Shown here in pieces: positions 1,924 to 52,713 of a stretch of 61,870 nt of DNA. Origin of the DNA: a virus (lineage: Duplodnaviria > Caudoviricetes); IMG/VR virus record IMGVR_UViG_3300018411_000001, positions 1-61,870 of that record, one strand, 5' to 3'. The notes beneath the pieces were generated by a model. The model did no database searches, had not been told where the DNA came from, and saw nothing but the letters and a program-made list of their open reading frames with translations. A program made the position numbers and the translations under genes. The stretch's first letter is position 1, and every line of letters begins with the position of its first letter.

Positions 1924-3177
1924 ATGCCTGCACTCACAGATGGCCAAATCAAACGCGCGATGAAGCGGGTGGCCGCCAGCAAAAAGCCCGAAACACTCAC
2001 AGACGGCGAAGGGCGCGGCACCGGCCGTTTGGTGCTGATCCTCAAGCCGCAGCCCACCCGGGTTACCAGCTCCTTCTTTGCCCAGCAGTGGAGCGATGGT
2101 AAGCGCAAGCTCAAGAAGATCGGCGACTACCCCCACATGACCCTGGCAGAAGCACGCGCCGTGTTCGAGCGCGACTTTGCCGCAGCCATCAACAAGGGAT
2201 CCTCCATCAAGGTGCAGGGCGACACCCGCCCCGGTACCGTGGGCGATCTGTTCGAGGCGTACTGCGATGCGCTGGAGGAGGCAGGCAAGAGCAGCCACAA
2301 GGAGGCGCGCAAGGGCTTGGCCAAGATCGCTGATGTGCTGGGGCGTAACCGGCTGGCCCGCGATATCACCCCGGAGGAGGTGCTGGGCGTCATCCGGCCG
2401 ATCTGGGACAGGGGCAAGAAGTCGATGGCGGATCACGTCCGGTCCTACATTCGCAGTGCCTACTCCTGGGGGCTCAAGTCAGAGCTTGATTACCGGTCCA
2501 CCAGCCCGCGTCGGTTCAAGCTGCACAGCAACCCGGCAGCGGACATCCCGACCGAGCCGAAGACCGTTGGCGAGCGCTGGCTGCGCGAGGAGGAGTGGGT
2601 GCAGATGTGGCGGTGGCTTCAAAACCCAGATGTACCGATCCATCCAGCATACCCACGAGCCATCATGCTGCTTATGCTCACAGGTCAAAGGGTTCAGGAG
2701 ATTTGCACTCTGCACAAGGACCAGTACCTGAAAGAGGAGGGAATGCTGGACTGGTCGAAGACGAAAAACGGCAAGCCGCACTCCATCCCCCTGCCCGCCA
2801 TGGCCATCGAACTGCTGGACAGCCTCACCCCCAACGAGCACGGCTGGTACTTCCCTGGTAGCAAGGACCCTTCGCAGTCGGTGCAGCACACCACCCTCTA
2901 TTCGTTCCTCTGGCGGCAGCGGGACCGGGGCGTGGTGCCAGCAGTATCGAACCGGGACATGCGCCGCACTTGGAAGACGCTCGCAGGCAAGGCGGGGCTG
3001 ACGAAGGAGATCCGCGACCGACTGCAGAACCATACCCTGCAGGATGTGTCGAGCAAGAGTTATGACCGCTACAGCTACATCAACGAGAAGCGGGAAGCGA
3101 TGGAGATCTGGGATCGGTTCGTGAGGGACATGATAAAGTTGAAGACACCACCGCGACTGACCGTCGTGGCCGCATAA
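1924..3177 (+). CDS. int: Tyrosine integrase with N-terminal arm-binding domain
   Basis: Arm domain (LTDGEG, KIGDYP..TLAEAR); catalytic TGQR, KTKNG, RDMRRT, LQNH, YDRY. Confidence 0.93.
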   Translation: MPALTDGQIKRAMKRVAASKKPETLTDGEGRGTGRLVLILKPQPTRVTSSFFAQQWSDGKRKLKKIGDYPHMTLAEARAVFERDFAAAINKGSSIKVQGDTRPGTVGDLFEAYCDALEEAGKSSHKEARKGLAKIADVLGRNRLARDITPEEVLGVIRPIWDRGKKSMADHVRSYIRSAYSWGLKSELDYRSTSPRRFKLHSNPAADIPTEPKTVGERWLREEEWVQMWRWLQNPDVPIHPAYPRAIMLLMLTGQRVQEICTLHKDQYLKEEGMLDWSKTKNGKPHSIPLPAMAIELLDSLTPNEHGWYFPGSKDPSQSVQHTTLYSFLWRQRDRGVVPAVSNRDMRRTWKTLAGKAGLTKEIRDRLQNHTLQDVSSKSYDRYSYINEKREAMEIWDRFVRDMIKLKTPPRLTVVAA

Positions 3178-3197
3178 ACCACCAAAATAAGGAACGT

Positions 3198-3476
3198 ATG
3201 AAAATCTACATTGCTGGGCCAATGACTGGGTTGGAAAACTTCAACCGCGATGAGTTCAATAAGATGGCTGAACATATTCGCGGGAACGGTGATGTTGCAC
3301 TAAACCCTGCAATACTGCCAGATGGGCTTTCACAGCACGAGTACATGGATATCTGCATGGCGATGATCAGGGCCGCTGATAGCATCATGCTGCTGAGAGG
3401 GTGGCAGCATTCGCCGGGGGCCAGGGCAGAACACGCCCTTGCTGAAAAGCTGGAGTTGGCGATCTTCACCCAATAA
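3198..3476 (+). CDS. DUF4406-family protein (nucleoside deoxyribosyltransferase-like fold)
   Basis: KIYIAGPMTG...LNPA...LRGWQHSPGARAEH signature. Confidence 0.85.
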   Translation: MKIYIAGPMTGLENFNRDEFNKMAEHIRGNGDVALNPAILPDGLSQHEYMDICMAMIRAADSIMLLRGWQHSPGARAEHALAEKLELAIFTQ

Positions 3477-3544: not shown

Positions 3545-4102
3545 TCAGCGCTTGCACTGCTTCACCACTTTTTCTACGTAGTCTTGCAGGGCTGATAGCT
3601 GCGCCTCCTTGCGGATTATTCCTGCCCTGAGATCGAAAACAGCGCGTCCAGCCTCTGGACTAAGCTCGGCGTCCGCTCCATCACCCATGCAGGCGGTGGC
3701 GCTATCTCCGCCTGTGGCGTTCCCACCACTATGGGCAAGCTTGGCGCCGAGGATGCGCAGCCGGCGATTGCCAGAGGCAACATCACGGCTGAGAGTTTCG
3801 TTTTCCATTTCTGCATCTGCAAGTTTCCTCTGGGTTTCGGCATCGAGGCGCGCCAGGTCTTCCTGAGCTGCCTTCATGCGGGCGATGGCTTGTTCGGTGT
3901 CCTGCTGGGCCTTGGTAGTGACGGCCAGCTTCTCCTTGAGCCACCCTTCACGCTCCCTGCCCTGCTCCTCTTTCAAGGTGGCAATGTCTGCCTCGTAGGC
4001 GGTCTTGGTTATCCACCAGGCAGCACCTGCTCCGGCACCGGCCACGAGGGCCACCAGCACCAGGGCGGCGATAGCTTTGAGCTTCCACGACAGCGCATTC
4101 AT
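3545..4102 (-). CDS. Inner-membrane spanin (Rz-like)
   Basis: N-terminal TM helix, coiled coil, C-terminal Cys; last gene of the lysis cassette. Confidence 0.88.
   Translation of the reverse strand: MNALSWKLKAIAALVLVALVAGAGAGAAWWITKTAYEADIATLKEEQGREREGWLKEKLAVTTKAQQDTEQAIARMKAAQEDLARLDAETQRKLADAEMENETLSRDVASGNRRLRILGAKLAHSGGNATGGDSATACMGDGADAELSPEAGRAVFDLRAGIIRKEAQLSALQDYVEKVVKQCKR
3616..3816 (-). CDS. Outer-membrane spanin lipoprotein (Rz1-like), embedded in the i-spanin gene
   Basis: Lipobox IAGC after a basic/hydrophobic leader; Pro-rich (APPPAW); alternative frame inside Rz. Confidence 0.85.
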   Translation of the reverse strand: MQKWKTKLSAVMLPLAIAGCASSAPSLPIVVGTPQAEIAPPPAWVMERTPSLVQRLDALFSISGQE

Positions 4103-6584: not shown

Positions 6585-9500
6585 TTAACGGTAGATCGTG
6601 GGCGCCTGTTCTTCCAGTATCCGATCCCGGAGTTTGCGGTTGTAGCGCATGCCGCCCGTTGCGTTCTCTGCGTTGTCCTCTCGGGTCTTGGCAGAGCGGC
6701 GCAGGGTTTTCGGCGTGATTTCCTGCTCGGGGTACTTGTCGTTGTAGGCGTCGATATCAGCCTCCAGGCTGTCCAGCTTGGCCTCGTCTCCCGCTTCCTC
6801 TGCCTTCCACCAGGAGTCCATCAGCGCCTGACGCTTGCGAACGATGGTCTGTTGCAGGTTGTAGCCGGCGTTGTTGATGTCGTACTGCTCGGCGATCTTC
6901 GCAGGGACAAAACCCAAGGCCTGACGGATGATGTCGAGGGTATCGATATCCTCCACGATGACATCCCCGCGCTTGTTGGTGGCGCCCTCGGTGGAGTAGC
7001 GGAATGCCTTCATCGGGTCCTTGATGGCTTTCGGCATCATGGTTTCGATCCCGCGGTAGACCTGACCCTCTTTCAGCAGGCCATAGCCGCGCACGATGTT
7101 GTCAGCGATGGACGGCGCCGCACCCAACAGCTGGGCTTTCCAGTAGTCGGCCTCGTCCTTGCCTTCGAGCTGCGAGGACGGGGACCGGAACCACAGATCC
7201 CGCATGCCGATAGAGTCGGTCAGGGATGTGCCGGTGGCATAACCCGGCACGCCATCGAGGACGATCCCGGCCATCATCGGGCCAAGGGCCTCGACCATGT
7301 TCTTTTTCAGCTCCACTTCTGGATCCTTGTCGTCATCCATAAAGGCGCTGGCAATCATCAGCATGATGCCAAAGCCCCAGGTGCCGGTGATGCCGGCCGA
7401 CAGCATCATCATGCCGGTGATCCCCGCCAGCTGGATCTTGGCCTCCTTGCGCACCTCTGGCGTGTCGCCCTGGGTGGCCTGGTGGATGTCACGGAACAGG
7501 CGGTACAGCATGTTGATGGAGAAGTTACGGAACACCAGCAGTGCCTTCATGGTGTCGCTGTGCATGATGCGCGGGCGGGAGGTGTTCTGGTAATCGAAGT
7601 GGGTTTTCCACGTCAGATCCCCAGCCTTCTGCACGGCACCGACATGCGGCAAGCCCTTGGCCCTGGCCATGCGGTATGCAGCCAGGAAGGTTACCTCACG
7701 GTTCAGGCGCTCGGTGTGGTGGAAGCCCCACGCCAGCAGCGCCATTATCTTGGTGCGTGCCGGGCTGTACTCGACACCAGTCTCACCAATACCGGCCAAG
7801 TCGTGAGACTGGGTGCGGTCGATGATCCCTATGTCATAGGCCTCTGCCATCGCCTTGCGCTCGTCTGCAGTGAGGCGCTTGCTGTTCTCGGTCTTGCCCT
7901 TGCCCATGGTGAAGTCACCCAGGGCGCGGGTCAGCTGGTTTGCGGCACGGGTCACGCCATTGGCGCCGCCATCGTAGCCGGCCAGGATCGGGATCCCCAT
8001 GATGACGGTCTGCGTCAGGTTGACGATTGCCGCCTTGGGGGAGGCCGCCAGGGCGTAGATGAACGCTGCCTGGGTGATCTTCTGCACCAGTGGGCCACCG
8101 GTCGGGTTCATGATGAACTGGTGGCGTTTCTCCATCTCGTTCACTACCAGGCCGTCGCGCACGGAGTCCTTGCTGGTGTTCGCTTCTTCGCGGGTAGCGT
8201 CGAGCGCTTCCTCCATATCGAAGGAGTGAGCCAGGCGTGCCAGCTGGTGTGATCCGTGGAACATCTGGTTACCGAAGGCGCGCAGGGCGTCAGCGTTGAA
8301 GCCGGCGCGGCCGGTACGGTGGATGCGACCCTTACGGACGGAGAAATCAGGCAGGCTCTCAAGGTAGCGCTGCCACACCTCATCCTTGACGCTTTCAGCA
8401 TTCGGCAGGTCGGCCAGGATGTCCTCCACGTCAGCCACGAAGTTCGGATCCACTGCCTTACGCAGGGAGCCGGTATCGTCCAGGGTGCCCACCTGCACCT
8501 TGTAGTTCTTGTCCTTGCGCATCAGGTCGGCAAATTCTCGCTGTTCACTGGCCTTCTCGAACTTGCTGAACGATTCGACCTTGCCGGTCTGCGCATCACG
8601 CACAGTCACGAACAGGTTGCCGAAGCGCGCAAGCGGGAAGTAAGGCCCCTGCAGGCGGTTCAATTCGAACTGCTGGCGCAGCTGGGTCATGCGGGCCTTG
8701 CGGTTCCAGGCGGTCTTGGTCTTGGCCACACGCAGCTTGTGGTCTGCATCGTCCATCGCCTCGGTACGCTCTTCGCCGGTCAGGCCCTCGTCCTCGATGC
8801 GCTGCAGCTCGTAGCGGTGCTCACGCTCTGCCTTCTTGATACGGACGTTGATCGCCTTCTCCATGTTGGCGAGCAGAACCTTCTCGTAGCCATCGGCCAG
8901 TGAGGTGTATGCGTCACGCACCTCCTTGAAGATCTGGCGCGCTTGCGGGGACAGGCGCTCATATCGGGTGTTGAGGTTTTCCCATGCCTTCTGCTGTTGC
9001 TTGTCCTCGCTGATCTTCTTGAGCAGCTCCTTTTCCTTGTCACTACCCGGTGACGCAAAGCGCAGGGCCTCACGATCCCGGTTGGTGACGATGGATTCAT
9101 GATCCTCTGACGGGTCAACCTGCAAGAGCGTTGCCTCGTGCATGAGGTTCATCATCTCGACGTTCTCGTCCTTGTTGTCCTTGCGGTACTCCAGCCACTT
9201 CTGGGCCACCTCGTCAGTCTTTGCGTGCCAGCGGTTGCGCATGGCATCCATGGACTGCTTGAGGCGCAGGTACTCACTGGCGGCGGGCAGGTTGCGTGCC
9301 ATCTCCTGCACCAGTGGGCGGAACGGGATCAGGGCAAGGCCCTTCTGCATCGCGTCGGTGGTCAGGTCGGACGGGGCATTCTTGGCCTTGTCCCACCACT
9401 GGCGCAGGCGGCTTCTGTCCTGTTCATCGGTGGGGATCTCCGGTGCCGGGTCCATCCCGCTCGGGGAGGTCGGCATATCGGCATAATCGCCGCTCAGATC

Positions 9501-12500
9501 GCGCACTGGCGTATCCGCCAGCGGGTTGGTGGCAAGCATGCGGGTGCTCAGGAAAGAACCGTCGCCCTTGGTGACCGCATCCAGACCCTTGATCACGGCA
9601 GCGGTAGAGGGCAGGCCGAACACGGAGCGGGCTTTCTGGATGAAACCCCGGATCCATTCCTTGGCCCTGGCAGCCCATCCCTGCTGACCATGGCGAGCGG
9701 CCATGATGCTGGCAGCGTTCACAGCCCAGTATTCGCTGGCGTTGGTCAGCTGGTAGTGCTGGTCGTAATCCAGCAGGCCAGACTCGAATGCCTTCATCGT
9801 GGCGTCACGGGCAGCCTTATTGCCGAATGCAGACAGGCGCAGGGCATCGAGCGCTGCACGTTGCTCCGGGGTAGCCTTCTTGTAAGCGTTCGCCCATGCC
9901 TTGTTGTACTCGGCCGCGATCCCCTTCTGCACGCCTGGCGGCATCATGCGCTCAGTGTGGTGCAGGATCTCGTGGATAGGAGCTGTGTCACGCATCCCCT
10001 CGGTCATCAGCTTGGCGATGCGCTCGGCGCGGTCGTAGCTGGAGCCACCTTTGCTGGAGATGCTGAAACCCAGATCCTCGGCAAGCTGCGGGTTGCGGTT
10101 CAGCGCCCAGATGGCGATGTCTGCTGCCTGCTCGCTGATCTCCCCGCGGCGGCGTGCGCGGTGCAGGCGCTCCAGCACCATGTCAGCACCACGTTGGCGC
10201 TCGGCAGTGGCGCGCTGGAATGCGTTCTCGCGTGACCTCTCCTCCAGCCAGCTGGCAAGCTCGCCCAACTGGTCGGAATACTGCTCCGGTGTCAGCTGCT
10301 CTTTCTGCTGCTCAAGCTTGCGCAGGCGGGCCGCCAGCTGGATACGGTTACCCTCCGGCAGGCGGCTGTACTGGGTATCCATGGCTAGGTCGTTGAAGAT
10401 ATTTGGCTTGTAATGGTCAAATGAACCTGAATTTCCGGTTGCTGATTTTATATTGACAGCATCAAATACTACATATCCTGTCTGATCGCGCCACTCTTTA
10501 TCTCCATGCTGCTTGATGATCAAACCATCAATTCCGGCCATATTATCTAAGTAAGCACTAGAGTCCCCCCAGTGAGGGTTTGCTTTGTGCGCCTTTGCTG
10601 CCGCCCCCCGCGATGGCTGTGATTCTTTCCAATCTAGGCGCAGCTCGGTGAATGTTTCGTAAGGGTTCGGGGTAATCATCCTAACGTATGCAGGCATCAC
10701 CTTTTCACCATAGTCTGCCGCTCGCTCCTTGCTCGAAGTAAACCATGACCCAATAGAATCGAGACCATCCTGCCCCCTGTGAGCAGGTTTCCGATCAAAC
10801 GCATCAAACTCCTTATATGTGCCGTGATACACAACCAGCGGCCTACCGCGCTCATCTACCACCTTGCTGTCACCGAACCAGCGCCAGAAGTTGCGGATCC
10901 CTTCCTCTGTTGGATGAATAGGCTTGCCATTGCTGTTAGTAGTCGGTCGCGACTTGCCGTCCACCTCGATGGTACTGATGGTCAGGTCGTTGAGTTGCGG
11001 CTCTGCTTCATCCGTTGCCGGTTTGGCAACAGCCTGCTCATCAGTTTTCTTTTTCGGGCGCAGCTGCTCGATCACCTCGCCATGGCGGGCGGTTGCTTCT
11101 TTCAGCTGCTCCTCCTTCTGCCATGGCTTGACCTGGGCCTGCAGGGCCGGGATCGCCTCTTGCGCCTTGGTGAGGGCGTCTTCCATCTTCTCGATGGCTG
11201 CCGGCAGGTCGCGCACGGAGTTGGTCAGGCGTACTGACAGGCCGGCCGGGTCTGCACCCACCTCCACTTTGGTGGAATAGGTGCCGGTACCGGACACCTC
11301 CAGTGCGTAGGTCTCTGCGTACAGCTTCTCCAGGGTCAGCTTGAAGCCGCCATAGGTGCCGATCTGACGCATTTCCTCGCCGGTCTGCTCCATCTGCAGA
11401 GTCTGCTGCAGGATCGCCTCGCCAGCATCCTTGCGCTTGTCGAAGGTCTGCCCGTCAATGGTGACCTCAAACTTGGCAGGCTGGGCCAGCTTGTCGTCAG
11501 CGCGCAAGCTTACCAGCTGGCGGTTGATGATCTTGACGTTGCCCTGCTCCATGCCGATCCGGTCACGGATGCGGAACTGGTCGCGGTCATGTGCGGTGCG
11601 CTCGTTCTCTAGGGTGCGGATACGCTGGCGCAGGGACATCTCTTCCAGGATGAGCGGGTTGCCACTGGATGCCGCTTTCATTTCTGCAGCGTTGGCAGCC
11701 TCGCCGGCCACGTCCTCGATCTCCCGGGTGCTGGTATCGCCCTTGCGCACCTGCTCGATAAAGGTGGCCTTGCCCTCGATGGTCTGCCACATGCGGCTGT
11801 CCAGGGTCTGCTTGGTGGCGTAGCGGTAGATCCCTACCTCGAACCCTTCCGGGTCGCGGTCATAGAGCTTGTTACCCTGACGGATGATCCGCCCCTCGCG
11901 CTGCTCCAGGTCAGACGGGCGCCATGGGGCGTCCAGGTGATGCAGGGCCACCAGCCGCTCTTGCACGTTCATGCCGGCGCCCATCTTGGCGGTAGAGCCG
12001 AACAGCACACGCACACGGCCGGTACGGACTTTCGCAAACAGATCAGTCTTTTGAAGGTCTGTCTTCGCGTCGTGGATGAAGGCGATCTCTTCTGCGGGGA
12101 TCCCACGCTCCACCAGCTTCTGCTTGAGGTCGTCATAGACAGAGAAGGCCGATTTGAGCGCGTCAATATCGTCCGGGCTCATCTTGTCCAGCTCTGCCTG
12201 TGCGGGATCCGCAACGGCAGGGTCATTGCTCTCGGCTCTCTCTATCAGGTCGCGCAGGTGCGCAGCCTCATCAGCACGAGCGCCCTTCGGCGTGGACAGG
12301 TCGATAAATACCAGCTGTGCGCCCTTGTCGTCGTGCCAGCGGTCGTAATCCTCCTTGATGTTGTTGGCAGCGAAATTGACCTTGCTGTCAGGGTTGTCCG
12401 GGTAATCAGGGTCGATCAGGCGCATATCCAGCGCGGCCTTGCGGGCGTCGGACATGATCTTGAGCATGTTGTCACCGCCCTTCTCTGCTTTCTTGGGAAG

Positions 12501-15500
12501 GTTCTCGGCGCGGTGAACCAGCGATCCGGACGGGAACTCGTCGGTGTCGTTACCCTCGGCATCCTTGACCGGCTCACCGATATAGGAGGCTTGCCACTGG
12601 GAGCGCTCAACAACCACGTTCTGCGGCTTGCCGCCTTTCACCTTCGGCACCGGCAGGCGCTTGCCCTGTGATGCGAGCATGCGGTTTATGTCGTCGCGGT
12701 TGATGACGTCAGCGAAAGCAGTGTAGCGCTGCATCAGCTCAGGCATGTTCACGAACTTGGCGAACCGGCTATTGAGCTTGTACTGGCCAGACGGGGACAG
12801 CTCCCAGTCGGTGACGACTTCGCCAAACATGCGCGCCCAGGCGTCGAAGTGCGACAGCCCGGACTGCTTGAGGTTGTCGTAATCCAGATAGCGCTGCATG
12901 GTATACATCTCGGCCATGGTGTTGCTGATCGGCGTGCCGGTCGCGAACACCACATTACGGCCCCCGGTCGCTTTGCGCACGACGCGGGTTTTCATGTAGA
13001 GGTCCGTTGATTTCTGGCTGCCGCTGGAGCTGCCAAGGCCTGCGACGTTGCGCATGCCGGTGCTGTAGGCCAGGTTCTTGAACTCGTGTGCCTCATCGAG
13101 GAACAGCGCATCAATCCCCAGGTCATCCCAGTACAGACTGTCATCCTTGTTGCCGGTGTCGAGCAGGGCTTTCAGCTTCTCTTCCATCTTGGTGCGGCGC
13201 TCGGCTGCCTGCTTCACGTTGCGGGACTTCTTGCCCTCGGCGGCCTCAATGGCATCGATAGAGCTGGTCAGATCCGCGATCTCTTCCCGGATGAACTCGG
13301 CTTCTGTCTCCGGCTTCATGCCGACCTTGCCGAATGAGGAATGAGCCACGATCACCGCGTCCCAGTCACCAGTGGCAATGCGCGCAAAGAAGCGCTTGCG
13401 GTTGGCCTTCTCAAAGTCGCGTTTGGTCGCGGCCAGGACGTTGGCGCCCGGGTACAGCTTGATGAAGTCCTTGGACCACTCACCTACGAGGTGGTTGGGG
13501 ACAACGAACATCGGCTTACGGGACAGCCCCAGGCGGCGCAGTTCCATGGCTGCGGCCACCAGCGTGAAGGTCTTACCGGCACCGACTACGTGATCGGCCA
13601 GGGTGCTGCCACCCTGCACGATGCGCCACACCGCGTTGCCTTGGTGCGGACGCAGCCTGATGATGTCGTCGGATATCTTGCCCGGGAATGTCAGGTGTGA
13701 CCCGTCATACTCCCGGCGCACGTCGGTGTTGAACAGGTCGTTATAGAGTCGGCTCAGTGAGCTGCGGCGGGCGTCATCACTCCAGATCCAGCGATCCCAC
13801 TCTTCCTTGACGGCTTTCACCTTGTCATTGGCGAGCTGGGTTTCGGTTTCATTCAGGGTGCGCGTGCCGTCGCGGCTCTCATCATAGACCTGCACCGCCT
13901 TCTGGGCGGCAGCGGCCTCGATGATCTGGCCGACGCTCATGCGGCTGGTACCAAAGCGCGCAGTAGCAGAGCTGGTGGCCTCCAGTTTCGGGAATGACCA
14001 GTTGGCATTGAGCGGGTTATAGAAAGCCTTGTTGCCGGCCTTCTCGGTGAGGTGATCGGCAAAGGCGGACATGGTGTCGGCCGGGATCCAGGTCGCCCCC
14101 GGCTTGACGTTGATATCTACCGCCTCGATATCCTTTGGCTGAACGGCGCGCAGGGCTTCGACGTTGCGGCCATAGGCCTGGCTGGTCTTGGCAGCCTCCT
14201 CGGCTCGTGCCAGCTTGCGCTTGACGTTGCCGGAGAGGTAATGATCGCGGGTCTGCCAGCCGGCATCCGGATCGCTGAACAGCAGATCGCCAAGCTCCTC
14301 GGCAATCTGCTCCTCGGGTTTGCCGTATAGCTGCACCATCATGTCCATATCGACACGGCCACGCTCGGCCAGGGTTGCAACCAGTGCATCCTTGGCAGTG
14401 TTGGCGCTGGTGGGCGCAGAGTACGGTTGCTGGGTGCGCTTGGTGAAGATGGCAGCTTTCACAGCAGACTGCGGGCGGGCCTCTTCGCCGGTGGTCTTGG
14501 CCACGGCAGCGGATACGCCGCGATCATAGCTGTCTTCCAGTGCGGATATCTGCGGCCAGGTCGGGTCATCACGGAACAACAGCTTGTTGGCCTGGCTGTT
14601 GATGGGGCCGTTGCTCTTCACGAAACCGTCATAGGTCTTGTTCAGGCGTACACGGGCCTCCTCGAGGGCGGCCTCACTGGCGGTGTTGGACAGCTGCAGC
14701 TGGCGCAGGCGTGAGAGGTTGTCGCGCAAGCGCAGCATCCCCTTCACGCGCTCCTCGGCCTTGGCGGAACGGAACTCCACCGCCTCGCCGGTGCGCTCGC
14801 CCATCACGTCCTCACCCCTGACCATGACACGGCCATCGCCGCTGATGAACATGGCGCCCACACGGGTGTTTTCAGCCTGCACAGTCTCGCGGGTTTCAGG
14901 TTTGACGGTTACCGCGGCCTGCATGATGCCGGCCGGCAGACGGTTGATAGCAGCGTCCAGCAACTGCAGGGTGTTCTGACCCTCACGGGCCACCAGCGCA
15001 GAGTCACCGGCACGGTACATTGTGCCGAAGGCGCCGAACTCACCCAGCATGTTGTCCGGGTTGGCCATGAAGTATTCATTGAGCGGCACGGTTGCGCCGT
15101 TCTTGTCGGTGAAATCGACGCTGTTCATCCAGCTGGTACCGCTGGGCTTCTGACCCGGGGCGCGGCGCTGCAGGATGATGATGTCGGTCGTTACCTCAGT
15201 GCCGGCATTCTTCGCAAAGGCGCTGTTCGGCAGGCGGATAGCCGCCACCAGATCGGCGCGCTCGGCGATGTACTGGCGGGCCTTGTCGCTGTTGCCGTCG
15301 AGGAACCGGTTGGTTACCACCATGGCCAGCACGCCACCAGGGCGCAGGGCATCGACAGAGCGGGCAAAAAAGTAGTTGTGAATGCTGAATCCTGACAGGT
15401 CCTTGCGGTTGCCGTCGTACAGCTTCTCAGACCCAAAGGGCGGATTGCCCACGGCCACGTCAAAGTAACCGTCCGGGATTGCGTACTCCTGGTACCCCAT

Positions 15501-18500
15501 GCGGGCAATCTTGGCGTCAGGGTAGAGCGCAGTAGCAATGCCAGAGGTGATGCGGTCAAGCTCCACCCCATGCAGGGCAGACGATCCGCGGGCATCCTGC
15601 GGCATAAGGCCAAAGAAGTTACCCACGCCAACTGACGGCTCGATCACGCGGCCACCGGTGAAGCCAAGGCGACCCAGCGCCTTCCACATCCCGTTGACGA
15701 TCTCCGGGCTGGTGTAGTGCGCGTTGCGGGTTGAGGCGGCAGCGGCTGCATACTCCTCTGGGGTCAGCAGGGATTTCAGCTCTGCAACCTGCTTCTCCCA
15801 GCCCTTATTGGCAGTGCCATCAGTGCGCTCGAAAGCGGCCGGTATCCCACCCCACCCTACATACTTGGACAGTGCTGCCTGGTCTGCTGCGGTAACGGCC
15901 CGGCCAGTCTCCTCCAGATCCTTGAGAACACGGATGGCTGCCACGTTGTTGGCGTACTTGGTCTTGTCGCCACCCTGCCCGATCTCCTCGGCATTGATGG
16001 TGAACAGATCGGCCGGCCGGTCTTGAGAGATTACTCCGGCTGCGGGTAGTACGGATCTTCCAGCGGCATCCCCATCACGGCTTGCAGGGCGGCCCCGCTC
16101 TGCTCTGGCCCTTCCTGCTGACTCTGCTCCTCTGGCGGAAACAGGTAGCTCTCCCGTGTCATCTCCCAGGCTTCGTGCTCGGTCATTCCCTGCTGCTCCA
16201 GTTCGTCCATCTCCCTGGCCGTCTGCTGCGCTGCCTGCTGCAGGGCTGCGTCCAGCTTCCCGGACTTCTGCAGCTGCGCGTACAGGCTTGGCCGGTGCTC
16301 CTGCCAGTGCAGGCGAGCTTGACTCACCCAGTTCTGTAGCTGTGCCATTGCGTTCTACCTCTGCGTCAAATTCTGCGACCATCGCATCGAGGCCGCTGGT
16401 GGGTCGGGGTCCAAGTTCATCGGAGGGCCGCTCGGTAGTGGATACCATAGGGGTCGGCTGTTCAACAGGCTGCTTGTTCAGCTTGGCCAGCTCTGCGCGC
16501 ACTGCTTCCGGGCTATCCATGCCATCGATGCTGACATTGCTGTCTTCCATCATATCCCTGGCGCCGTTGTACCAGCTGCGCAGGTAAGGGCGCAGGCGGG
16601 CAAGCGGCATATCCAGATCGGCGGCCATAGCCTTGGCGAAGTCGGAGAACTTGCGGGCGCTGGCTTCAATGTGGAACACGGCAAGCTCGGTACCGATGGC
16701 CAGGATTTCCGGGTCGATACCGCTGTTTAGCTGGGCAAACTTCGCTTTAAGCTTCTGGCGCAGCTCTGCGGCTCGGTCCTGCGACACTAGCTTGTTGTTG
16801 GCGCCGTACTCTGCTTGCTGGCTGGCCTCGGCTTGGACCGGTGCCGTAACTGTTTCTCCGCTTACGCTTTGGGCTGGAAGAACAGATGTTTGGTTCAACT
16901 CTTCAGGGGTGCTTGCAGGTTCAGACTGGGCAGCCACAATCGCCTGCATCACGCCTGCGCGGTCGCTTTCGCTTTTCAGTCCGTTCTTGACGTTGGCGGT
17001 CCACTTCTTCTTCATCGGGTGATCGTCAGGTACCAGCTCAAGCGCGCCCGTGGCCTGCTCGCGCCAACCCCCCTGATTGGCTGGCTTGCCGGAAAGATCA
17101 ATCACCTTGGCTGGCGTGTTGCGCACGCTCTCGCCAGCACTGTTCGCCCAGTAGTCAGCAAGGGGGTCGTCGGTCTTAATTGGGGACTTTGACCCAGCCT
17201 TGTTTTCCCCTTGTTGCGCCGCATGCTCGGCTGTTGCCGTTTCAGCAACAGGCTGGGCACCAACTTTCGACCATTCGACACGACGGGACTTGCCCACCTC
17301 CAGATCCGGCATGCTGACGGTAGCAGTCTCGCCGGTTTCCTGGTTGGTGAGGTAGGTGGTGCCGTTCTTCTCGATCCGGTCTACGGTGTAACGCGCACCA
17401 GGCTGGAGCCCACCGACTTCACCAGACGGTGACACGGTTTGACCTACCTCGCCCACCAGCTTCTTGACCCGATTGACGCGGGGATTGCTCGCCGCCTTCT
17501 TGGGTGCTGCCGGCTTGGGCACCTCTGCAGTGGATGCGCGCAGCTCAAAGCGTCCTGGCTGTACCTCTTGCGGGGCGTAGCCGGTGAGGCCCTTCTTCTC
17601 GATGTGGGCTGCTGCCTTCTCTGCGGTGCTGAACCACTTCGGTTTGCCATCGGCACCGAGCACGGTGTCAGCCTGCTGGGCTGGCTGCTCTTCAACTACT
17701 GGCGCCTTGGCTGCCTGCACCTGGGCATCGAGCACGCGCTCAACCTTGCGGCGCTCATCAGAGAGGCGCTTATCCCAGCCGCCATTGGTCTTGGCCTGAC
17801 GAGCCAGATAGCGCATGCGGTCACGCAGCTCACCTTCATCCATCTGTTCCAGTGACTTCTGAGCGGGGGCTTCTTCCTTGACGGCCGGTTGCGCCGGTGA
17901 ACTGTCAAGGATTTCTCCAGTGTTCGGGTCTACACCCTGCTCTTGCAGGGCCTGCTCGATAGCGGACTGGCGCTCCTGGGTCTGCTGCTCCTCGACCTGG
18001 GCGCGTTCTGCCTTCACCTCTTCCGGGGTGCCTGCATCCTGCATCTGCTGATCGGTGGTGACCTGCGGGGCGGCAGCGGCTGTGATGTCCACTTCGTCAG
18101 GGCTGACAGTGTACGGGGTGCCATCTTCGCCACGAACGGTAACACCGCCGTCGCTTTCGTAGCGCTCAACAGTGGCCACCAGTGCAGACTGGGGATCGCC
18201 CTTGGCCTGCATCTGGATAGTGGCGCCAGGCTCACCGGCCCAGAAATTGCCATTGGCGGCATCAGGTTGCTGGGCAGTGCCGCGGGCAGCACGCTCAAGC
18301 GGGCCAGCATCGTCTGACAGCCCGGTATCATCCCGGCTCGGCGTGGGGGCGGCGGCAACCGCCTCCTCCATAGCAGCCTGTTGCGGGTCTACCTGTGCGG
18401 CTTCTTGTGCGGGAGGGATATCTGCTGCCGGGCCTTGGCCAGCTCGGGGGGCAGCTGCACCCATGCCGGCACCCATGATGCCGCCGACCGCAAGGCCACC

Positions 18501-20213
18501 AGCCGCCTGGTTTGCAACACCGCGCATCAATGGGGTGCTCGAATCTGCATCCTGCATGGCGTAGTTCTGGCTCATCTGCTGGGTGGCGCTCTGGGGCACC
18601 TCCTCAAACAGACCTTCACCCAGTGCGCCGGTCAGCGCAGATTTGAGGCGACCACTCTTGCCCAGGATGATCTTGGCCAGGGCACGGTCACCCATACCGC
18701 CGAACATGCCGGTAGTGACACCAGCAAGCACGAAGGCTTTGGAGGATGCGCTATCCGCAAGCTCTTTGCGGGCTTCGTCAAAGGATCGGCCGCTATCCAT
18801 GAGGGAAGCCAGAGCTTCACTGTCTTTCAGCTGCTCGGGGGACATCTTGAGGATCTGCTCGCGGGTTTCGCGGGATGCCTGGGCGCCGCCCAGACCACCC
18901 TCAAGGATGCCACCGGCAAACATGGCAGTGCGTGCAGCAGTCTTGGCGGCGGCTTCACGGGTTGCACCCTTGGCCAGTGCACGCTTGTAGCCCATAGAGG
19001 CAAGGCGACCAGATCCGCCCATGGTGATCGCCATCTCCGGCAGGGATTCAAGGATCCCTGATGCGTAAGCGCGGGGATCTGACCAGGCAGGGCCAAAGCT
19101 GTAGCTGGTGGCCTTGGTGCCGTCGCCCTGATCGTCACCCGGCTCGATAACCCATGCCTTCTTGCGGGCCTGCAGCATCTCAGGGGAGAGGGATTTCTCG
19201 GTGTCCTTGTCCCACTCCTTGAAAATCTCCTCGCTACCCTTGCCATTCGCCCAGCGGTCGAAGCGGTCAGCCGCCTTGACGATGGGCTGGCCGATGTACG
19301 GGATCTTGCCCACCAGCTCCTGCACGTCCTTGGCTGCGGTGTTCACGCCAGAGGTGAGCAGAGTGCCGGCGTCCTTCACCGCATCAAGCGCCTTGTCGGC
19401 GATCCCCTTGGCCTCGGCCTGCGTTGCATTCGCATCGCTGTAGTCGAGAGTTGGCATTTCCGGGGTGTCAGCTGTGAGCTGCTGTTGCTGCTGTTGTGCG
19501 GGCTGCTGGTTCGGCTGTTGCTGCTGGAGCTGGGCAACCTCCTCCTGGGTCAGGGCGCGATAGCGATCCGGCTCGTCCTGGTTCAGCTGGGCAAGCATGG
19601 TGTCAATCTGGGTGCCGCGTTCTTTGAGCGCGCTCAGGTCTGGGCTGGTGACAGCTTGGGAAGTGGGAAGGCCCTCGGTGATAGGCTGCTGGCCCTGCGG
19701 CTGGGCGATGTTGCCGCCAGTGCCATCAAAGAAACGCTGCGCCTTGCCAAGAACCTCGATGCCGTAGGCGCGGGTCTTGGGGCCCCACTGCTTCCGATCG
19801 TCCCCGCCGAAGTGCGCAGAGATCGCCTCCTGCATGGAGTAGCCCTTATCCAGGCGGGTTTTCAGCTGCTTGGCTGCTGCATCGATAGACTGCACGGGAT
19901 CGTAAGGGTTGATGCCCATGGCCTGAGCGGTCGATGGGATGTACTGCATCAGGCCCTTTGCGCGGCCGTACTTGGTGGGCTGACCCACGGCGGTTGGGTT
20001 GAAACTCGACTCCTGCTGCGCCAGTGCCATGAGCACGTTGACCGGCACACCGTACTTGGTGGATGCGGCGCTAAAGTAGGGTTGGAACGGGACATTGCCC
20101 GGCTCGAATGTCTGCTGCGGCTTGCTCTCCTGCTTGAATGATTCAGGCAGGCCAAAGGTCGGAGCGTTCGCGAGCGCAGACTCAAGGGGCGACGGGAGTG
20201 AGTTTCTTGCCAC
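6585..20213 (-). CDS. Giant DarB-like polyvalent virion protein: SLT transglycosylase, N6-adenine MTase, SNF2 helicase, ART-like domain, HExxH domain, PLxRFG domain
   Basis: QESSFNP/GLMQ (SLT); EPSVGVG and NPPF (MTase); VGAGKT, DEAH, QREGR (SF2); PLVVYHGT; HEILHH; YFPLARFG. Confidence 0.93.
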   Translation of the reverse strand: MARNSLPSPLESALANAPTFGLPESFKQESKPQQTFEPGNVPFQPYFSAASTKYGVPVNVLMALAQQESSFNPTAVGQPTKYGRAKGLMQYIPSTAQAMGINPYDPVQSIDAAAKQLKTRLDKGYSMQEAISAHFGGDDRKQWGPKTRAYGIEVLGKAQRFFDGTGGNIAQPQGQQPITEGLPTSQAVTSPDLSALKERGTQIDTMLAQLNQDEPDRYRALTQEEVAQLQQQQPNQQPAQQQQQQLTADTPEMPTLDYSDANATQAEAKGIADKALDAVKDAGTLLTSGVNTAAKDVQELVGKIPYIGQPIVKAADRFDRWANGKGSEEIFKEWDKDTEKSLSPEMLQARKKAWVIEPGDDQGDGTKATSYSFGPAWSDPRAYASGILESLPEMAITMGGSGRLASMGYKRALAKGATREAAAKTAARTAMFAGGILEGGLGGAQASRETREQILKMSPEQLKDSEALASLMDSGRSFDEARKELADSASSKAFVLAGVTTGMFGGMGDRALAKIILGKSGRLKSALTGALGEGLFEEVPQSATQQMSQNYAMQDADSSTPLMRGVANQAAGGLAVGGIMGAGMGAAAPRAGQGPAADIPPAQEAAQVDPQQAAMEEAVAAAPTPSRDDTGLSDDAGPLERAARGTAQQPDAANGNFWAGEPGATIQMQAKGDPQSALVATVERYESDGGVTVRGEDGTPYTVSPDEVDITAAAAPQVTTDQQMQDAGTPEEVKAERAQVEEQQTQERQSAIEQALQEQGVDPNTGEILDSSPAQPAVKEEAPAQKSLEQMDEGELRDRMRYLARQAKTNGGWDKRLSDERRKVERVLDAQVQAAKAPVVEEQPAQQADTVLGADGKPKWFSTAEKAAAHIEKKGLTGYAPQEVQPGRFELRASTAEVPKPAAPKKAASNPRVNRVKKLVGEVGQTVSPSGEVGGLQPGARYTVDRIEKNGTTYLTNQETGETATVSMPDLEVGKSRRVEWSKVGAQPVAETATAEHAAQQGENKAGSKSPIKTDDPLADYWANSAGESVRNTPAKVIDLSGKPANQGGWREQATGALELVPDDHPMKKKWTANVKNGLKSESDRAGVMQAIVAAQSEPASTPEELNQTSVLPAQSVSGETVTAPVQAEASQQAEYGANNKLVSQDRAAELRQKLKAKFAQLNSGIDPEILAIGTELAVFHIEASARKFSDFAKAMAADLDMPLARLRPYLRSWYNGARDMMEDSNVSIDGMDSPEAVRAELAKLNKQPVEQPTPMVSTTERPSDELGPRPTSGLDAMVAEFDAEVERNGTATELGESSSPALAGAPAKPVRAAAEVREAGRSPAAGSAADGQGDGRTGAAGNDRARSLGDDTGELPVSARGAESAGRARAERGRPASRDGDAAGRSVLPAAGVISQDRPADLFTINAEEIGQGGDKTKYANNVAAIRVLKDLEETGRAVTAADQAALSKYVGWGGIPAAFERTDGTANKGWEKQVAELKSLLTPEEYAAAAASTRNAHYTSPEIVNGMWKALGRLGFTGGRVIEPSVGVGNFFGLMPQDARGSSALHGVELDRITSGIATALYPDAKIARMGYQEYAIPDGYFDVAVGNPPFGSEKLYDGNRKDLSGFSIHNYFFARSVDALRPGGVLAMVVTNRFLDGNSDKARQYIAERADLVAAIRLPNSAFAKNAGTEVTTDIIILQRRAPGQKPSGTSWMNSVDFTDKNGATVPLNEYFMANPDNMLGEFGAFGTMYRAGDSALVAREGQNTLQLLDAAINRLPAGIMQAAVTVKPETRETVQAENTRVGAMFISGDGRVMVRGEDVMGERTGEAVEFRSAKAEERVKGMLRLRDNLSRLRQLQLSNTASEAALEEARVRLNKTYDGFVKSNGPINSQANKLLFRDDPTWPQISALEDSYDRGVSAAVAKTTGEEARPQSAVKAAIFTKRTQQPYSAPTSANTAKDALVATLAERGRVDMDMMVQLYGKPEEQIAEELGDLLFSDPDAGWQTRDHYLSGNVKRKLARAEEAAKTSQAYGRNVEALRAVQPKDIEAVDINVKPGATWIPADTMSAFADHLTEKAGNKAFYNPLNANWSFPKLEATSSATARFGTSRMSVGQIIEAAAAQKAVQVYDESRDGTRTLNETETQLANDKVKAVKEEWDRWIWSDDARRSSLSRLYNDLFNTDVRREYDGSHLTFPGKISDDIIRLRPHQGNAVWRIVQGGSTLADHVVGAGKTFTLVAAAMELRRLGLSRKPMFVVPNHLVGEWSKDFIKLYPGANVLAATKRDFEKANRKRFFARIATGDWDAVIVAHSSFGKVGMKPETEAEFIREEIADLTSSIDAIEAAEGKKSRNVKQAAERRTKMEEKLKALLDTGNKDDSLYWDDLGIDALFLDEAHEFKNLAYSTGMRNVAGLGSSSGSQKSTDLYMKTRVVRKATGGRNVVFATGTPISNTMAEMYTMQRYLDYDNLKQSGLSHFDAWARMFGEVVTDWELSPSGQYKLNSRFAKFVNMPELMQRYTAFADVINRDDINRMLASQGKRLPVPKVKGGKPQNVVVERSQWQASYIGEPVKDAEGNDTDEFPSGSLVHRAENLPKKAEKGGDNMLKIMSDARKAALDMRLIDPDYPDNPDSKVNFAANNIKEDYDRWHDDKGAQLVFIDLSTPKGARADEAAHLRDLIERAESNDPAVADPAQAELDKMSPDDIDALKSAFSVYDDLKQKLVERGIPAEEIAFIHDAKTDLQKTDLFAKVRTGRVRVLFGSTAKMGAGMNVQERLVALHHLDAPWRPSDLEQREGRIIRQGNKLYDRDPEGFEVGIYRYATKQTLDSRMWQTIEGKATFIEQVRKGDTSTREIEDVAGEAANAAEMKAASSGNPLILEEMSLRQRIRTLENERTAHDRDQFRIRDRIGMEQGNVKIINRQLVSLRADDKLAQPAKFEVTIDGQTFDKRKDAGEAILQQTLQMEQTGEEMRQIGTYGGFKLTLEKLYAETYALEVSGTGTYSTKVEVGADPAGLSVRLTNSVRDLPAAIEKMEDALTKAQEAIPALQAQVKPWQKEEQLKEATARHGEVIEQLRPKKKTDEQAVAKPATDEAEPQLNDLTISTIEVDGKSRPTTNSNGKPIHPTEEGIRNFWRWFGDSKVVDERGRPLVVYHGTYKEFDAFDRKPAHRGQDGLDSIGSWFTSSKERAADYGEKVMPAYVRMITPNPYETFTELRLDWKESQPSRGAAAKAHKANPHWGDSSAYLDNMAGIDGLIIKQHGDKEWRDQTGYVVFDAVNIKSATGNSGSFDHYKPNIFNDLAMDTQYSRLPEGNRIQLAARLRKLEQQKEQLTPEQYSDQLGELASWLEERSRENAFQRATAERQRGADMVLERLHRARRRGEISEQAADIAIWALNRNPQLAEDLGFSISSKGGSSYDRAERIAKLMTEGMRDTAPIHEILHHTERMMPPGVQKGIAAEYNKAWANAYKKATPEQRAALDALRLSAFGNKAARDATMKAFESGLLDYDQHYQLTNASEYWAVNAASIMAARHGQQGWAARAKEWIRGFIQKARSVFGLPSTAAVIKGLDAVTKGDGSFLSTRMLATNPLADTPVRDLSGDYADMPTSPSGMDPAPEIPTDEQDRSRLRQWWDKAKNAPSDLTTDAMQKGLALIPFRPLVQEMARNLPAASEYLRLKQSMDAMRNRWHAKTDEVAQKWLEYRKDNKDENVEMMNLMHEATLLQVDPSEDHESIVTNRDREALRFASPGSDKEKELLKKISEDKQQQKAWENLNTRYERLSPQARQIFKEVRDAYTSLADGYEKVLLANMEKAINVRIKKAEREHRYELQRIEDEGLTGEERTEAMDDADHKLRVAKTKTAWNRKARMTQLRQQFELNRLQGPYFPLARFGNLFVTVRDAQTGKVESFSKFEKASEQREFADLMRKDKNYKVQVGTLDDTGSLRKAVDPNFVADVEDILADLPNAESVKDEVWQRYLESLPDFSVRKGRIHRTGRAGFNADALRAFGNQMFHGSHQLARLAHSFDMEEALDATREEANTSKDSVRDGLVVNEMEKRHQFIMNPTGGPLVQKITQAAFIYALAASPKAAIVNLTQTVIMGIPILAGYDGGANGVTRAANQLTRALGDFTMGKGKTENSKRLTADERKAMAEAYDIGIIDRTQSHDLAGIGETGVEYSPARTKIMALLAWGFHHTERLNREVTFLAAYRMARAKGLPHVGAVQKAGDLTWKTHFDYQNTSRPRIMHSDTMKALLVFRNFSINMLYRLFRDIHQATQGDTPEVRKEAKIQLAGITGMMMLSAGITGTWGFGIMLMIASAFMDDDKDPEVELKKNMVEALGPMMAGIVLDGVPGYATGTSLTDSIGMRDLWFRSPSSQLEGKDEADYWKAQLLGAAPSIADNIVRGYGLLKEGQVYRGIETMMPKAIKDPMKAFRYSTEGATNKRGDVIVEDIDTLDIIRQALGFVPAKIAEQYDINNAGYNLQQTIVRKRQALMDSWWKAEEAGDEAKLDSLEADIDAYNDKYPEQEITPKTLRRSAKTREDNAENATGGMRYNRKLRDRILEEQAPTIYR
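16031..16348 (-). CDS. TnpV-like protein nested in an alternative frame of the giant gene
   Basis: SD GAGGT 8 nt before the ATG; WQEHRPSLYAQLQKSGKL resembles TnpV; the host frame is a low-complexity linker here. Confidence 0.75.
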   Translation of the reverse strand: MAQLQNWVSQARLHWQEHRPSLYAQLQKSGKLDAALQQAAQQTAREMDELEQQGMTEHEAWEMTRESYLFPPEEQSQQEGPEQSGAALQAVMGMPLEDPYYPQPE

Positions 20214-51616: not shown

Positions 51617-52713
51617 GCTGCACCCCCTGCTTGGCTGGTGGCCTGCTGCGGGTCTGATTCAGGGCGCCGCTCAAGGGTTTCGCGCCAGTCTCCAATTACC
51701 TCGCCAACGCACCCCGTGCTTGAACTGGGGCCGGCAAACCGCTCAGTGGAGCCAAGCCAGAACCATTCTCCGCTGCGGCGCTGGGTAACTGATAGCGCCC
51801 AATCTGGGGCTTCATCCCAACCAGGCTTGTTCTGCAGCTCCGCCTTGCGCTCCAGGTACTCGGCCTTGGTGAACCAGTGATACTCGGCGTAGTTGGACAG
51901 GCTCGGCATCGAGGCGGGGCCTGTCCACACATAATCCTCAGCTCCATCCCTTGCGATATGGGTGCACTTCCCGAACCACTCTCCCTTCGTCTCGCGAACC
52001 AGCCAAGCGAGATGAGCGCGCAGTTGCGCCTCTGTCGGCGCGTGGTTGTCGTTCGCAGGGATGATAGCCACGCCGGGGCGCAGCTCGACTGAGTTTGTGG
52101 GGGCCTCGTTGCCCCAGTGGTCCCAGCCGGCCGCGTCACTGCGGCTGAACAGCTCGACGCGCTTCACGTCGCCGTACAGCTTTTCGATGGCTTCGCGGAT
52201 TTCTGTCGGCTTTGCGCTGTGCTTGCCAATGGGCGCCATGATCATCTGCTTGATGTTTGCCTGCAGACGGGGAAGACCCTTGCCCTTTACGGCCACCAGC
52301 ACGTTCTCGACGTTGCTGCGGGTGTAGTTGCCCAGGCCCATGCGGGTTTGCTCTGCGATGAGGGCGAGGATTTCGGCGCCGGTTATCGCGTAGCAGGCGG
52401 CGGCGTGGGCGGCCAGTTGGCTGTCGATGTGCTGCTCCGCCAGCTTGTTGAGCTTGTGCCAGGAGAACAGACACATGTTCTTGACCTTGAAGCCCCAGGC
52501 CTCCGCCAGCTGGATGGCCTCCAGCGGCATCGGGGGGACCCACCACATCGCGAGAACGGCATCATCAGCAGCCAGATCCCATACGGGCAGGCGCTTGAGT
52601 TCAGCCAGGGTCATTGTGGGGTAGTGGTTTTCGGCTTTCGCCCGGGATCCCTTGTTGTCGTATGACCAACTCGGGTCAGCGTAAATCAATGAATACTTTT
52701 CTGTCGGTTGCAT
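51613..52713 (-). CDS. MT-A70-family adenine methyltransferase with an extra C-terminal domain
   Basis: IYADPSW, HYPTM, AWGF, GLGNYTRSN.E, HSAKP, ELFSR, WGNE. Confidence 0.9.
   Translation of the reverse strand: MQPTEKYSLIYADPSWSYDNKGSRAKAENHYPTMTLAELKRLPVWDLAADDAVLAMWWVPPMPLEAIQLAEAWGFKVKNMCLFSWHKLNKLAEQHIDSQLAAHAAACYAITGAEILALIAEQTRMGLGNYTRSNVENVLVAVKGKGLPRLQANIKQMIMAPIGKHSAKPTEIREAIEKLYGDVKRVELFSRSDAAGWDHWGNEAPTNSVELRPGVAIIPANDNHAPTEAQLRAHLAWLVRETKGEWFGKCTHIARDGAEDYVWTGPASMPSLSNYAEYHWFTKAEYLERKAELQNKPGWDEAPDWALSVTQRRSGEWFWLGSTERFAGPSSSTGCVGEVIGDWRETLERRPESDPQQATSQAGGAA

Follow-up and report, generated by a model that had tools for sequence, protein, structure and literature searches.

Does a piece of DNA that is read in one frame as part of a giant phage protein also encode a second, separate protein in another frame? 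The question is raised by the IMG/VR virus record IMGVR_UViG_3300018411_000001 (Duplodnaviria; Caudoviricetes), a complete phage genome record of 61,870 bp (61.9 kb) with direct terminal repeats, which was analysed over its full length and is called the window below. A giant DarB-like open reading frame (ORF) of this genome holds within it a small ORF of 105 aa with a distant likeness to the TnpV family. We conclude that the small ORF is very probably a real and separately expressed gene, conserved and unannotated. We regard it as a real gene and not as a chance ORF because its homology, its conserved start, its predicted fold and its pattern of substitutions exceed what chance would give.

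The nested frame and its start signals

The small ORF lies on the same strand as the giant ORF, fully inside it and in its +1 frame ((20213-16348) mod 3 = 1). The features of the overlap are listed here, all by their positions in the window.

16031-16348, minus strand: nested gene (P0001), 105 aa with an ATG start; a four-helix core at residues 2-69, then an acidic disordered tail
6585-20213, minus strand: giant polyvalent (DarB-like) ORF, 4542 aa, from the ORF listing and its Pfam domains
16357-16361, minus strand: Shine-Dalgarno (SD)-like GAGGT, 8 nt 5' of the nested ATG (16346-16348); its giant-frame codons read Glu-Val
16355-16357, minus strand: TAG stop in the nested frame, two codons 5' of the nested ATG, from three-frame translation
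16029-16349, minus strand: giant-frame segment overlapped by the nested ORF (giant residues ~1289-1395), from translation; a Gly/Ala/Arg/Pro/Asp-rich linker

A same-strand, alternative-frame ORF of 105 aa with the SD sequence GAGGT inside the giant gene had been described in a sequence-only reading of this DNA, and both the ORF listing and the sequence bear that description out. The TAG two codons before the nested ATG leaves hardly any room for frameshift entry from the giant frame.

The nested, same-strand, out-of-frame layout was found in 19 phage loci and in 41 of 51 bacterial loci, and the start of the nested ORF is conserved. A profile search of stop-to-stop frames matched all of the 74 sequences compared (the window and 73 loci). 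A start codon stands at profile position 1 or a few codons from it in 70 of the 74 (68 ATG, 2 GTG); the four exceptions, without a start at profile position 1, are a cut locus, two weak hits and one sequence with a different N-terminus. Of 69 loci, 55 have a GGAG, GAGG or AGGA core at -17 to -5 of the nested start; in background windows from the same loci the frequency is 11.3%. Kinship among the loci inflates any P value for this enrichment. No sigma-70-like promoter was found within positions 15500-17500, so that translation presumably proceeds from the giant mRNA, and internal initiation on that mRNA at the nested SD and ATG is the simplest reading.

The sequence-only reading had further suggested that the nested gene might couple re-initiation of a C-terminal product of the giant frame. 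This suggestion is not supported. A giant-frame ATG within 12 nt of the nested stop occurs in 1 of 67 loci, and in that locus the small gene is free-standing; in the window, the stretch that runs from 30 nt upstream of the nested stop to 45 nt downstream contains no giant-frame ATG, GTG or TTG.

Selection on the two frames

When the giant residues are kept and their codons redrawn (synonymous recoding), the chance that the nested frame stays open is 0.15-0.90 across 18 loci, so that openness of this frame is not in itself beyond chance. The converse holds for the giant frame. If the nested protein is recoded synonymously with each locus's own codon usage, the giant frame is left open with P 0-0.171 (median 0.017), against an observed 19 of 19 phage loci in which it is open. 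The third frame over the overlap contains 3-9 stops per phage locus.

Among 16 phage sequences, the diversity at nested codon positions 1, 2 and 3 is 0.314, 0.265 and 0.428, respectively (74 ungapped core columns). Translated in the nested frame, these sequences share on average 55.7% identity per pair; the giant frame gives 38.0% and the third frame, which is non-coding, 39.3%. Of the two coding frames, the nested one has the higher identity in 120 of 120 pairs. Substitutions were also classed in 17 close pairs, partly non-independent, by their effect on the nested frame (first letter) and on the giant frame (second letter), S being synonymous and N non-synonymous. The counts over sites are SN 358/1077, NS 124/1396, NN 237/2543 and SS 15/39, corresponding to 0.332, 0.089, 0.093 and 0.388 changes per site. 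The ratio of non-synonymous to synonymous change (dN/dS) is accordingly 0.28 (NN/SN) or 0.23 (NS/SS) for the nested frame, and 1.05 (NN/NS) or 0.86 (SN/SS) for the giant frame in the overlap.

The same shift is visible along the gene. In 11 pairs, the differences at giant codon positions 1, 2 and 3 number 292, 140 and 120 over the overlap and 312, 218 and 1176 over the next 900 nt downstream; the wobble phase flips to the nested frame over the overlap in all 11 pairs. Of the variants listed for wastewater contigs (two runs), nested position 3 accounts for 9 of 15 in the ORF and giant position 3 for 17 of 21 in the methylase flank; neither region has an insertion or deletion among its listed variants. 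The linker encoded by the giant frame is, in the pooled loci, made up of 19% G, 13.9% A, 11.1% R and 9.2% P, with W, M, Y and F at <=0.5% each.

The amino acid sequence is therefore selected only in the nested frame, where selection is purifying. Over the overlap the giant frame is a neutral low-complexity tether, free to vary and kept stop-free by selection. The sequence-only reading had taken the small ORF for a real gene through which the giant ORF reads, and had proposed to compare dN/dS in both frames. That view is upheld by the purifying selection on the nested frame (0.23-0.28, with 0.86-1.05 in the giant frame), by a giant frame that is open against expectation, and by the conserved SD and ATG.

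The nested family and its genomic settings

P0001 matches the Pfam family TnpV (PF14198) with an E-value of 3.6e-5 and 24.1 bits, its residues 3-63 aligning to profile positions 22-82 of 111. The TnpV gathering score of 27 bits is not reached, and a six-frame search of the genome (24.5 bits) likewise stays under the cut-off. TnpV is matched at E<=0.01 by 18 of 29 close homologues and by 19 of 55 wider family members, and the gathering score is reached by none of the 55 and none of the 29 (best E 3.6e-5 and 3.2e-5). The name TnpV-like, which the sequence-only reading had given to the gene, thus stands as far as a distant local likeness goes; full membership does not, every member scanned scoring under the gathering cut-off, and because of this shortfall in Pfam score we write "TnpV-like" and not TnpV. 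In size and habitat the family agrees with TnpV, consisting of ~110-aa stand-alone proteins whose hosts are phages and methylase-helicase genes of mobile-element type.

The homologues called number 28 (90% clusters) and are 104-117 aa long. A profile of the close homologues, searched against 1.84 billion representatives, matches 972 clusters at E<=1e-3 and 269 at E<=1e-10. Proteins of the 972 clusters are mostly 75-135 aa long; the best 150 matches are nearly all of 58-185 aa, and none of them exceeds 480 aa. Searches of NCBIfam and PADLOC returned no family for P0001 or for two other members, P0024 and P0031, and PF08989 has no match in the window. In the ESM Atlas the matches are unnamed clusters of ~100 aa, together with one from Verrucomicrobiota in which 11% of the members carry TnpV.

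AlphaFold2, run with a 55-sequence alignment, gives a model of P0001 with a mean predicted local distance difference test (pLDDT) of 82.9 and a predicted template modelling score (pTM) of 0.64, the pLDDT being >90 over the first 70 residues. The predicted helices (residues 2-18, 20-29, 32-52 and 57-69, pLDDT >90) are followed by a disordered tail. The best structural match of the model is chain A of PDB entry 2apl (Z 8.0, root-mean-square deviation 2.1 A over 65 residues, model residues 1-72, 15% identity), followed by a match at Z 5.9; Z values of this size are common among helical bundles. Foldseek finds nothing in the PDB at E<=1e-3, 2apl having E 2.1, and a sequence search of the PDB with the family profile finds nothing under E 0.4. 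The family is acidic: its median isoelectric point (pI) is 4.74, 48 of 55 members are below pI 5.5, and P0001 itself has a pI of 4.49.

The relatives of the window found by blastn and tblastn are podovirus-like phages: LASTA/SJM3, SopranoGao, PEp14, Pavtok, Stean, Itty13, VvAW1, POI1126, Mwe-JY07, Atu_ph08 and PBC5. By tblastn the nested peptide is found in 21 phage records, each time beneath a giant coding sequence (CDS), which in GenBank relatives is labelled "DarB-like antirestriction". Wherever the frames were worked out, the ORF (102-132 aa) is in the +1 frame to the giant CDS and its Met occupies the same alignment position. The same arrangement is present in seven more IMG/VR loci. According to the feature tables, the small ORF is listed as a gene of its own in none of the 11 distinct GenBank phage records.

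Individual phages show variations on this layout. In Itty13 (MW460249.1, 3851-9456), three long "hypothetical protein" CDSs are annotated on the opposite strand of a locus whose giant frame is open over 5.6 kb at 67.6% guanine plus cytosine; the annotation of the giant gene there looks to be on the wrong strand. In PBC5 (AF448724.1), orf33 (2185 aa) is the upstream part of the giant gene running into the TnpV-like frame and ending at its stop. The linker frame of PBC5 is open only from locus position 1230, and compared with Atu_ph08 there is a one-base frame change just 5' of the nested ATG, which could be a real split, as by a lineage-specific indel, or an error in the 2002 sequence. Because orf33 runs into the TnpV-like frame, the nested protein also matches phrog_938, annotated "endolysin"; the match covers positions 2085-2167 of a 2185-position profile, the length of orf33, and we rejected it as a functional lead. 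A 72-kb IMG/VR contig carries a Klebsiella pneumoniae chromosomal remnant with an intact nested gene of 112 aa (P0024); the giant gene around it is interrupted by a stop shortly before the nested gene and degenerates ~130 codons into the methylase. Records of P0024 come from 385 contigs, so the remnant is widespread.

Bacterial loci were collected with a 10-sequence alignment of profile hits. They span Alpha-, Beta- and Gammaproteobacteria, Chlorobiota, Planctomycetota, Acidobacteriota and Verrucomicrobiota. In 43 of 54 bacterial loci the nested ORF is covered in full by the frame one base upstream (-1 to it), and in 1 of 54 by the other frame. Among the 51 loci in which the nested start is defined, the gene lies within ORFs of 300 to >2000 aa in 33 and within shorter covering frames in 8, and it is free-standing in 10. 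Large ORFs scanned from five lineages contain, downstream of the nested ORF, an Eco57I-type methylase in four cases (three with ResIII); the fifth (L059) combines Methyltransf_11 with SNF2/ResIII. In most Verrucomicrobiota loci the ATG of the large ORF is only 52-91 nt 5' of the nested ATG, so that the overlap is part of the methylase-helicase gene's own leader and not a fusion junction. Among plasmids, tblastn of P0001 returned one record, a 59-kb Brucella replicon that matches the giant gene of the window.

Some bacterial loci carry further features of their own. In two metagenome-assembled genomes of Acidobacteriota (L052, L053), the nested ORF is longer, at 137 aa, and shares its 3' end with both the linker and the first conserved methylase motif (NVAAIRLLKQLE), which makes part of a constrained domain dual-coding. 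The large-frame leader of the Verrucomicrobiota loci (L055-L075) carries QL[DSEN][LF]F (for instance QLSLFEF or QLDLFSF) 20-30 codons 5' of the nested ATG, a motif resembling QL[SD]LF, which we take to be the consensus for binding the beta sliding clamp. In this place the enterobacterial-phage group has LDDMVxQF, and other lineages have neither. A universal "LDxMVxxF / QLxLF" motif 5' of the nested start was considered and rejected, the loose pattern occurring in 22 of 69 loci and only in the enterobacterial-phage group and Verrucomicrobiota.

Two loci of Burkholderia and its phages lie at the edge of detection. In gp75 of Bcep22 (NC_005262, ~52250-52560), a +1-frame ORF of ~100 aa occurs in a Gly/Ala/Arg-rich leader just before the methylase motif, and the genome gives a weak match to the family profile (E 0.004). 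A B. vietnamiensis plasmid (NZ_CP020393, locus positions 1154-1459) has a +1-frame ORF of ~100 aa at the matching leader position; it shares "QQGVTEHE" and does not match the profile (E 0.55). The Prokaryotic Genome Annotation Pipeline (PGAP) gives there a separate 101-aa hypothetical CDS followed by a "helicase-related protein" starting after it. Both may be diverged positional counterparts, in which case the arrangement would reach well beyond the range of profile detection.

The constant neighbour of the nested gene is the methylase. In the giant ORF the Pfam domains are SLT (residues 46-147), Eco57I-type methylase (1580-1661), ResIII/SNF2/Helicase_C (2185-2780), ART-PolyVal (3120-3265) and LPD39 (3609-3816). 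The host gene thus joins a methylase and a superfamily-2 helicase in one polypeptide with more effector domains, as expected of a DarB-like or polyvalent protein. The parts of it that flank the overlap are as follows.

15231-16010, minus strand: N-terminal part of the methylase module, starting with "DLFTINAEEIGQGGDKTKY"; the Pfam Eco57I match (residues 1580-1661) is at 15231-15476
11874-13661, minus strand: helicase part of the module, with ResIII (residues 2185-2285) and Helicase_C (2704-2780) from Pfam
16542-16727, minus strand: conserved helical domain upstream of the overlap, "NSGIDPEIL...HIE..ARKF.DF...PYLRSWYNGARDMMED"

In the window, the methylase module begins at ~16010, ~7 codons past the nested stop. 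The N-terminal methylase motif follows the nested stop by ~10-50 residues in 29 of 30 loci, so that the placement just before the methylase domain, as given in the sequence-only reading, proves to be general. No Pfam or NCBIfam model matches the upstream helical domain. It is joined in frame to the TnpV-like domain, in either order, in the metagenomic proteins P0053, P0055, P0116 and P0135; these could be a Rosetta-stone hint of interaction or frame-shifted fragments.

Two phages allow the linkage to be examined where the module itself has changed. Klebsiella phage ZX1, which belongs to the same genus as LASTA, and Serratia phage Parlo have retained SLT and LPD39 together with the upstream helical domain. 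Their central module differs, consisting of a helicase with a Sno-type C-domain and then an MTS-type methylase, to which ZX1 adds a GNAT domain. The nested family has no match in ZX1 or Parlo at E<=1 in a search in which the positive controls, LASTA and Atu_ph08, were matched. The nested gene is lost when the Eco57I-type methylase-helicase module is exchanged. Compared with the window, ZX1 and Parlo also provide a clear instance of module swapping inside otherwise collinear polyvalent proteins, within one genus. A complex prediction of nested residues 1-80 with the first 500 residues of the methylase module scored 0.02 against a mark of 0.32; made without controls, it has no bearing on binding.

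Competing readings and known systems

We propose that ribosomes would start internally on the giant mRNA at the nested SD and ATG, and that one stretch of DNA would thereby yield two products, a folded acidic 12-kDa protein and a giant protein with a tether segment. The TnpV-like gene would be the older frame. The small gene appears older because it has free-standing relatives and an ordinary composition, while the composition of the host frame is typical of a read-through frame. The linker may have arisen as the frame of a methylase-helicase gene extended across the small gene, and the extended gene would later have been joined to N-terminal modules in the polyvalent proteins of phages.

Several points weigh against the reading of the small ORF as a separate gene associated with this module. 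Its open frame is unsurprising once the composition of the giant frame is given, the Pfam TnpV match is under the curated cut-off, and the case for translation of the nested gene rests on sequence comparison. The compared loci being related, their counts are not independent events. P1, the source of the DarB prototype, has no nested-family match at E<=1. In-frame fusions in a few proteins, together with orf33 of PBC5, make a fusion or frameshift product conceivable in some lineages. As regards function, the support is the linkage; the fold search adds none, its best match (2apl) being uncharacterised.

That the ORF is a chance product, open only through base composition and the make-up of the linker and spuriously similar to TnpV, can draw on its P of 0.15-0.90 for openness and on the Pfam score, but is hardly credible in the face of the selection, homology, fold and start-site results. 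A +1 frameshift near the nested start, which would make the TnpV-like domain the C-terminus of a truncated product running from SLT to the upstream helical domain, agrees with orf33 of PBC5, whose upstream part is in frame with the TnpV-like domain and terminates at its stop, and with P0053, P0116 and P0135, where the upstream helical domain is fused in frame to that domain. We nevertheless consider it very unlikely. In the window and in seven other loci (L001-L004, L008, L014 and L016), two codons separate a nested-frame stop from the ATG, and the distance is 1-5 codons in several others; both the ATG and the SD are conserved, and free-standing homologues start at the same Met. In Verrucomicrobiota, where the large ORF starts 52-91 nt upstream, there is no N-terminal product to extend, and the frame change of PBC5 relative to its close relative Atu_ph08 could itself be a sequencing error or a lineage-specific indel. 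It is just as improbable that the locus consists of three separate genes, an upstream gene, the TnpV-like gene and a methylase-helicase gene, that merely share an open frame. PGAP does split the B. vietnamiensis plasmid locus into a 101-aa CDS and a "helicase-related protein", and among the 51 bacterial loci whose nested start is defined, 10 have the TnpV-like gene free-standing. Against such a split, the giant frame is open in 19 of 19 phage loci (median chance 0.017 each), the large frame covers the nested ORF in 43 of 54 bacterial loci and the other frame in 1 of 54, and a downstream start codon is near the nested stop in 1 of 67 loci, with no stop that would end an upstream product. Even in the B. 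vietnamiensis locus the large frame is open from ~150 nt 5' of the small CDS.

For the function of a separate nested gene we weigh two proposals. Because of its linkage to the module, the small acidic protein could be an accessory partner of the methylase-helicase, made in cis; it might serve as a chaperone, restrain DNA binding before packaging as an acidic brake, or aid packaging. We offer this tentatively, as an idea that may well fail; the sequence-only reading had suggested a chaperone, inhibitor or packaging partner of the methylase-helicase, for which linkage is likewise the support. About as likely, and in our view still doubtful, is that the protein is real but independent of the methylase-helicase, for example a DNA-mimic anti-restriction protein or a regulatory hitch-hiker. 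Independence would suit the strong acidity of the family (median pI 4.74, 48 of 55 below pI 5.5), the free-standing copies without a surrounding large ORF, and the intact copy in the Klebsiella chromosomal remnant despite a broken methylase gene. It fits less well with the fixed position directly before the methylase motif in 29 of 30 loci and with the disappearance of the nested gene together with the module where the latter has been swapped (ZX1 and Parlo).

A broader possibility, which we think rather unlikely, is that the DarB-type module, in phages as in plasmids and integrative elements, is an ancient cassette of two proteins, the second of which has escaped notice because it is encoded in the +1 frame of the module's leader or linker; this second subunit would bind the enzyme or mimic DNA for it. 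Were this so, the small protein would hold the enzyme in an inactive or foldable state within the producer cell, or steer it into the capsid or the transfer channel, and the overlap would force joint inheritance and expression each time the module moves from one polyvalent protein to another.

In phages and bacteria, few same-strand nested genes have solid comparative support, and this one spans several phyla and dozens of elements. Its reversed overprinting would mark one route to large polyvalent proteins, namely reading across a pre-existing small gene. DarB-like anti-restriction modules, which matter in practice for phage host range and plasmid transfer, would also gain a component that has gone unrecognised: expressing only the annotated giant ORF, or recoding it, would silently change or remove a second protein. 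For gene finders and family databases it provides a clear test case, as Pfam, NCBIfam and PADLOC have no model that captures the nested family.

No description of the nested gene was found in the literature, supplements lying outside the scope of the search (for example Supplementary Figure S2 of PMC6630229, on the domains of Atu_ph08 gp21). The main text of the polyvalent-protein survey of Iyer et al. 2017 (PMC5512222) contains none of the terms TnpV, overlapping or frameshift. Atu_ph08 gp21 is described as one product in the passages of PMC6630229 that deal with it, and the giant gene is likewise treated as a single product in the corresponding passages of the Lastavirus literature.

The host gene compares most directly with DarB of P1 and the DarB-like polyvalent proteins, with which it shares a methylase and helicase module flanked by SLT, ART-PolyVal and LPD39. 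As stated in the relevant passage of PMC6630229, P1 DarB is packaged in the virion and protects against restriction. P1 differs from the window in having no match to the nested family at E<=1.

For the nested protein, the nearest named family is TnpV, which we take to originate from Tn4451 of Clostridium and to have no demonstrated role. Both are helical mobile-element proteins of ~100-110 aa, locally alike over residues 3-63. Unlike TnpV, the nested family is found in phages and in elements from several phyla, among them Pseudomonadota, Verrucomicrobiota and Acidobacteriota, and most of its genes lie within a larger gene. The best fold match, PG0816 of Porphyromonas gingivalis (2apl), is an uncharacterised structural-genomics protein without a match at the sequence level; it presumably corresponds to DUF1896 of Bacteroidota conjugative transposons.

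As to the arrangement, embedded out-of-frame genes include lambda Rz1 within Rz and Bacillus subtilis comS within the giant srfA synthetase gene. As in those cases, a small same-strand gene lies here wholly inside a larger one, in another frame and with start signals of its own, and the host of comS is also a giant multi-module gene. Our case differs in being known from sequence alone and in being conserved across phyla. It differs also in the roles of the two frames. Here it is the embedded frame that is conserved, folded and probably older, and the host frame is a neutral linker free of stops; classical overprinting has it the other way round.

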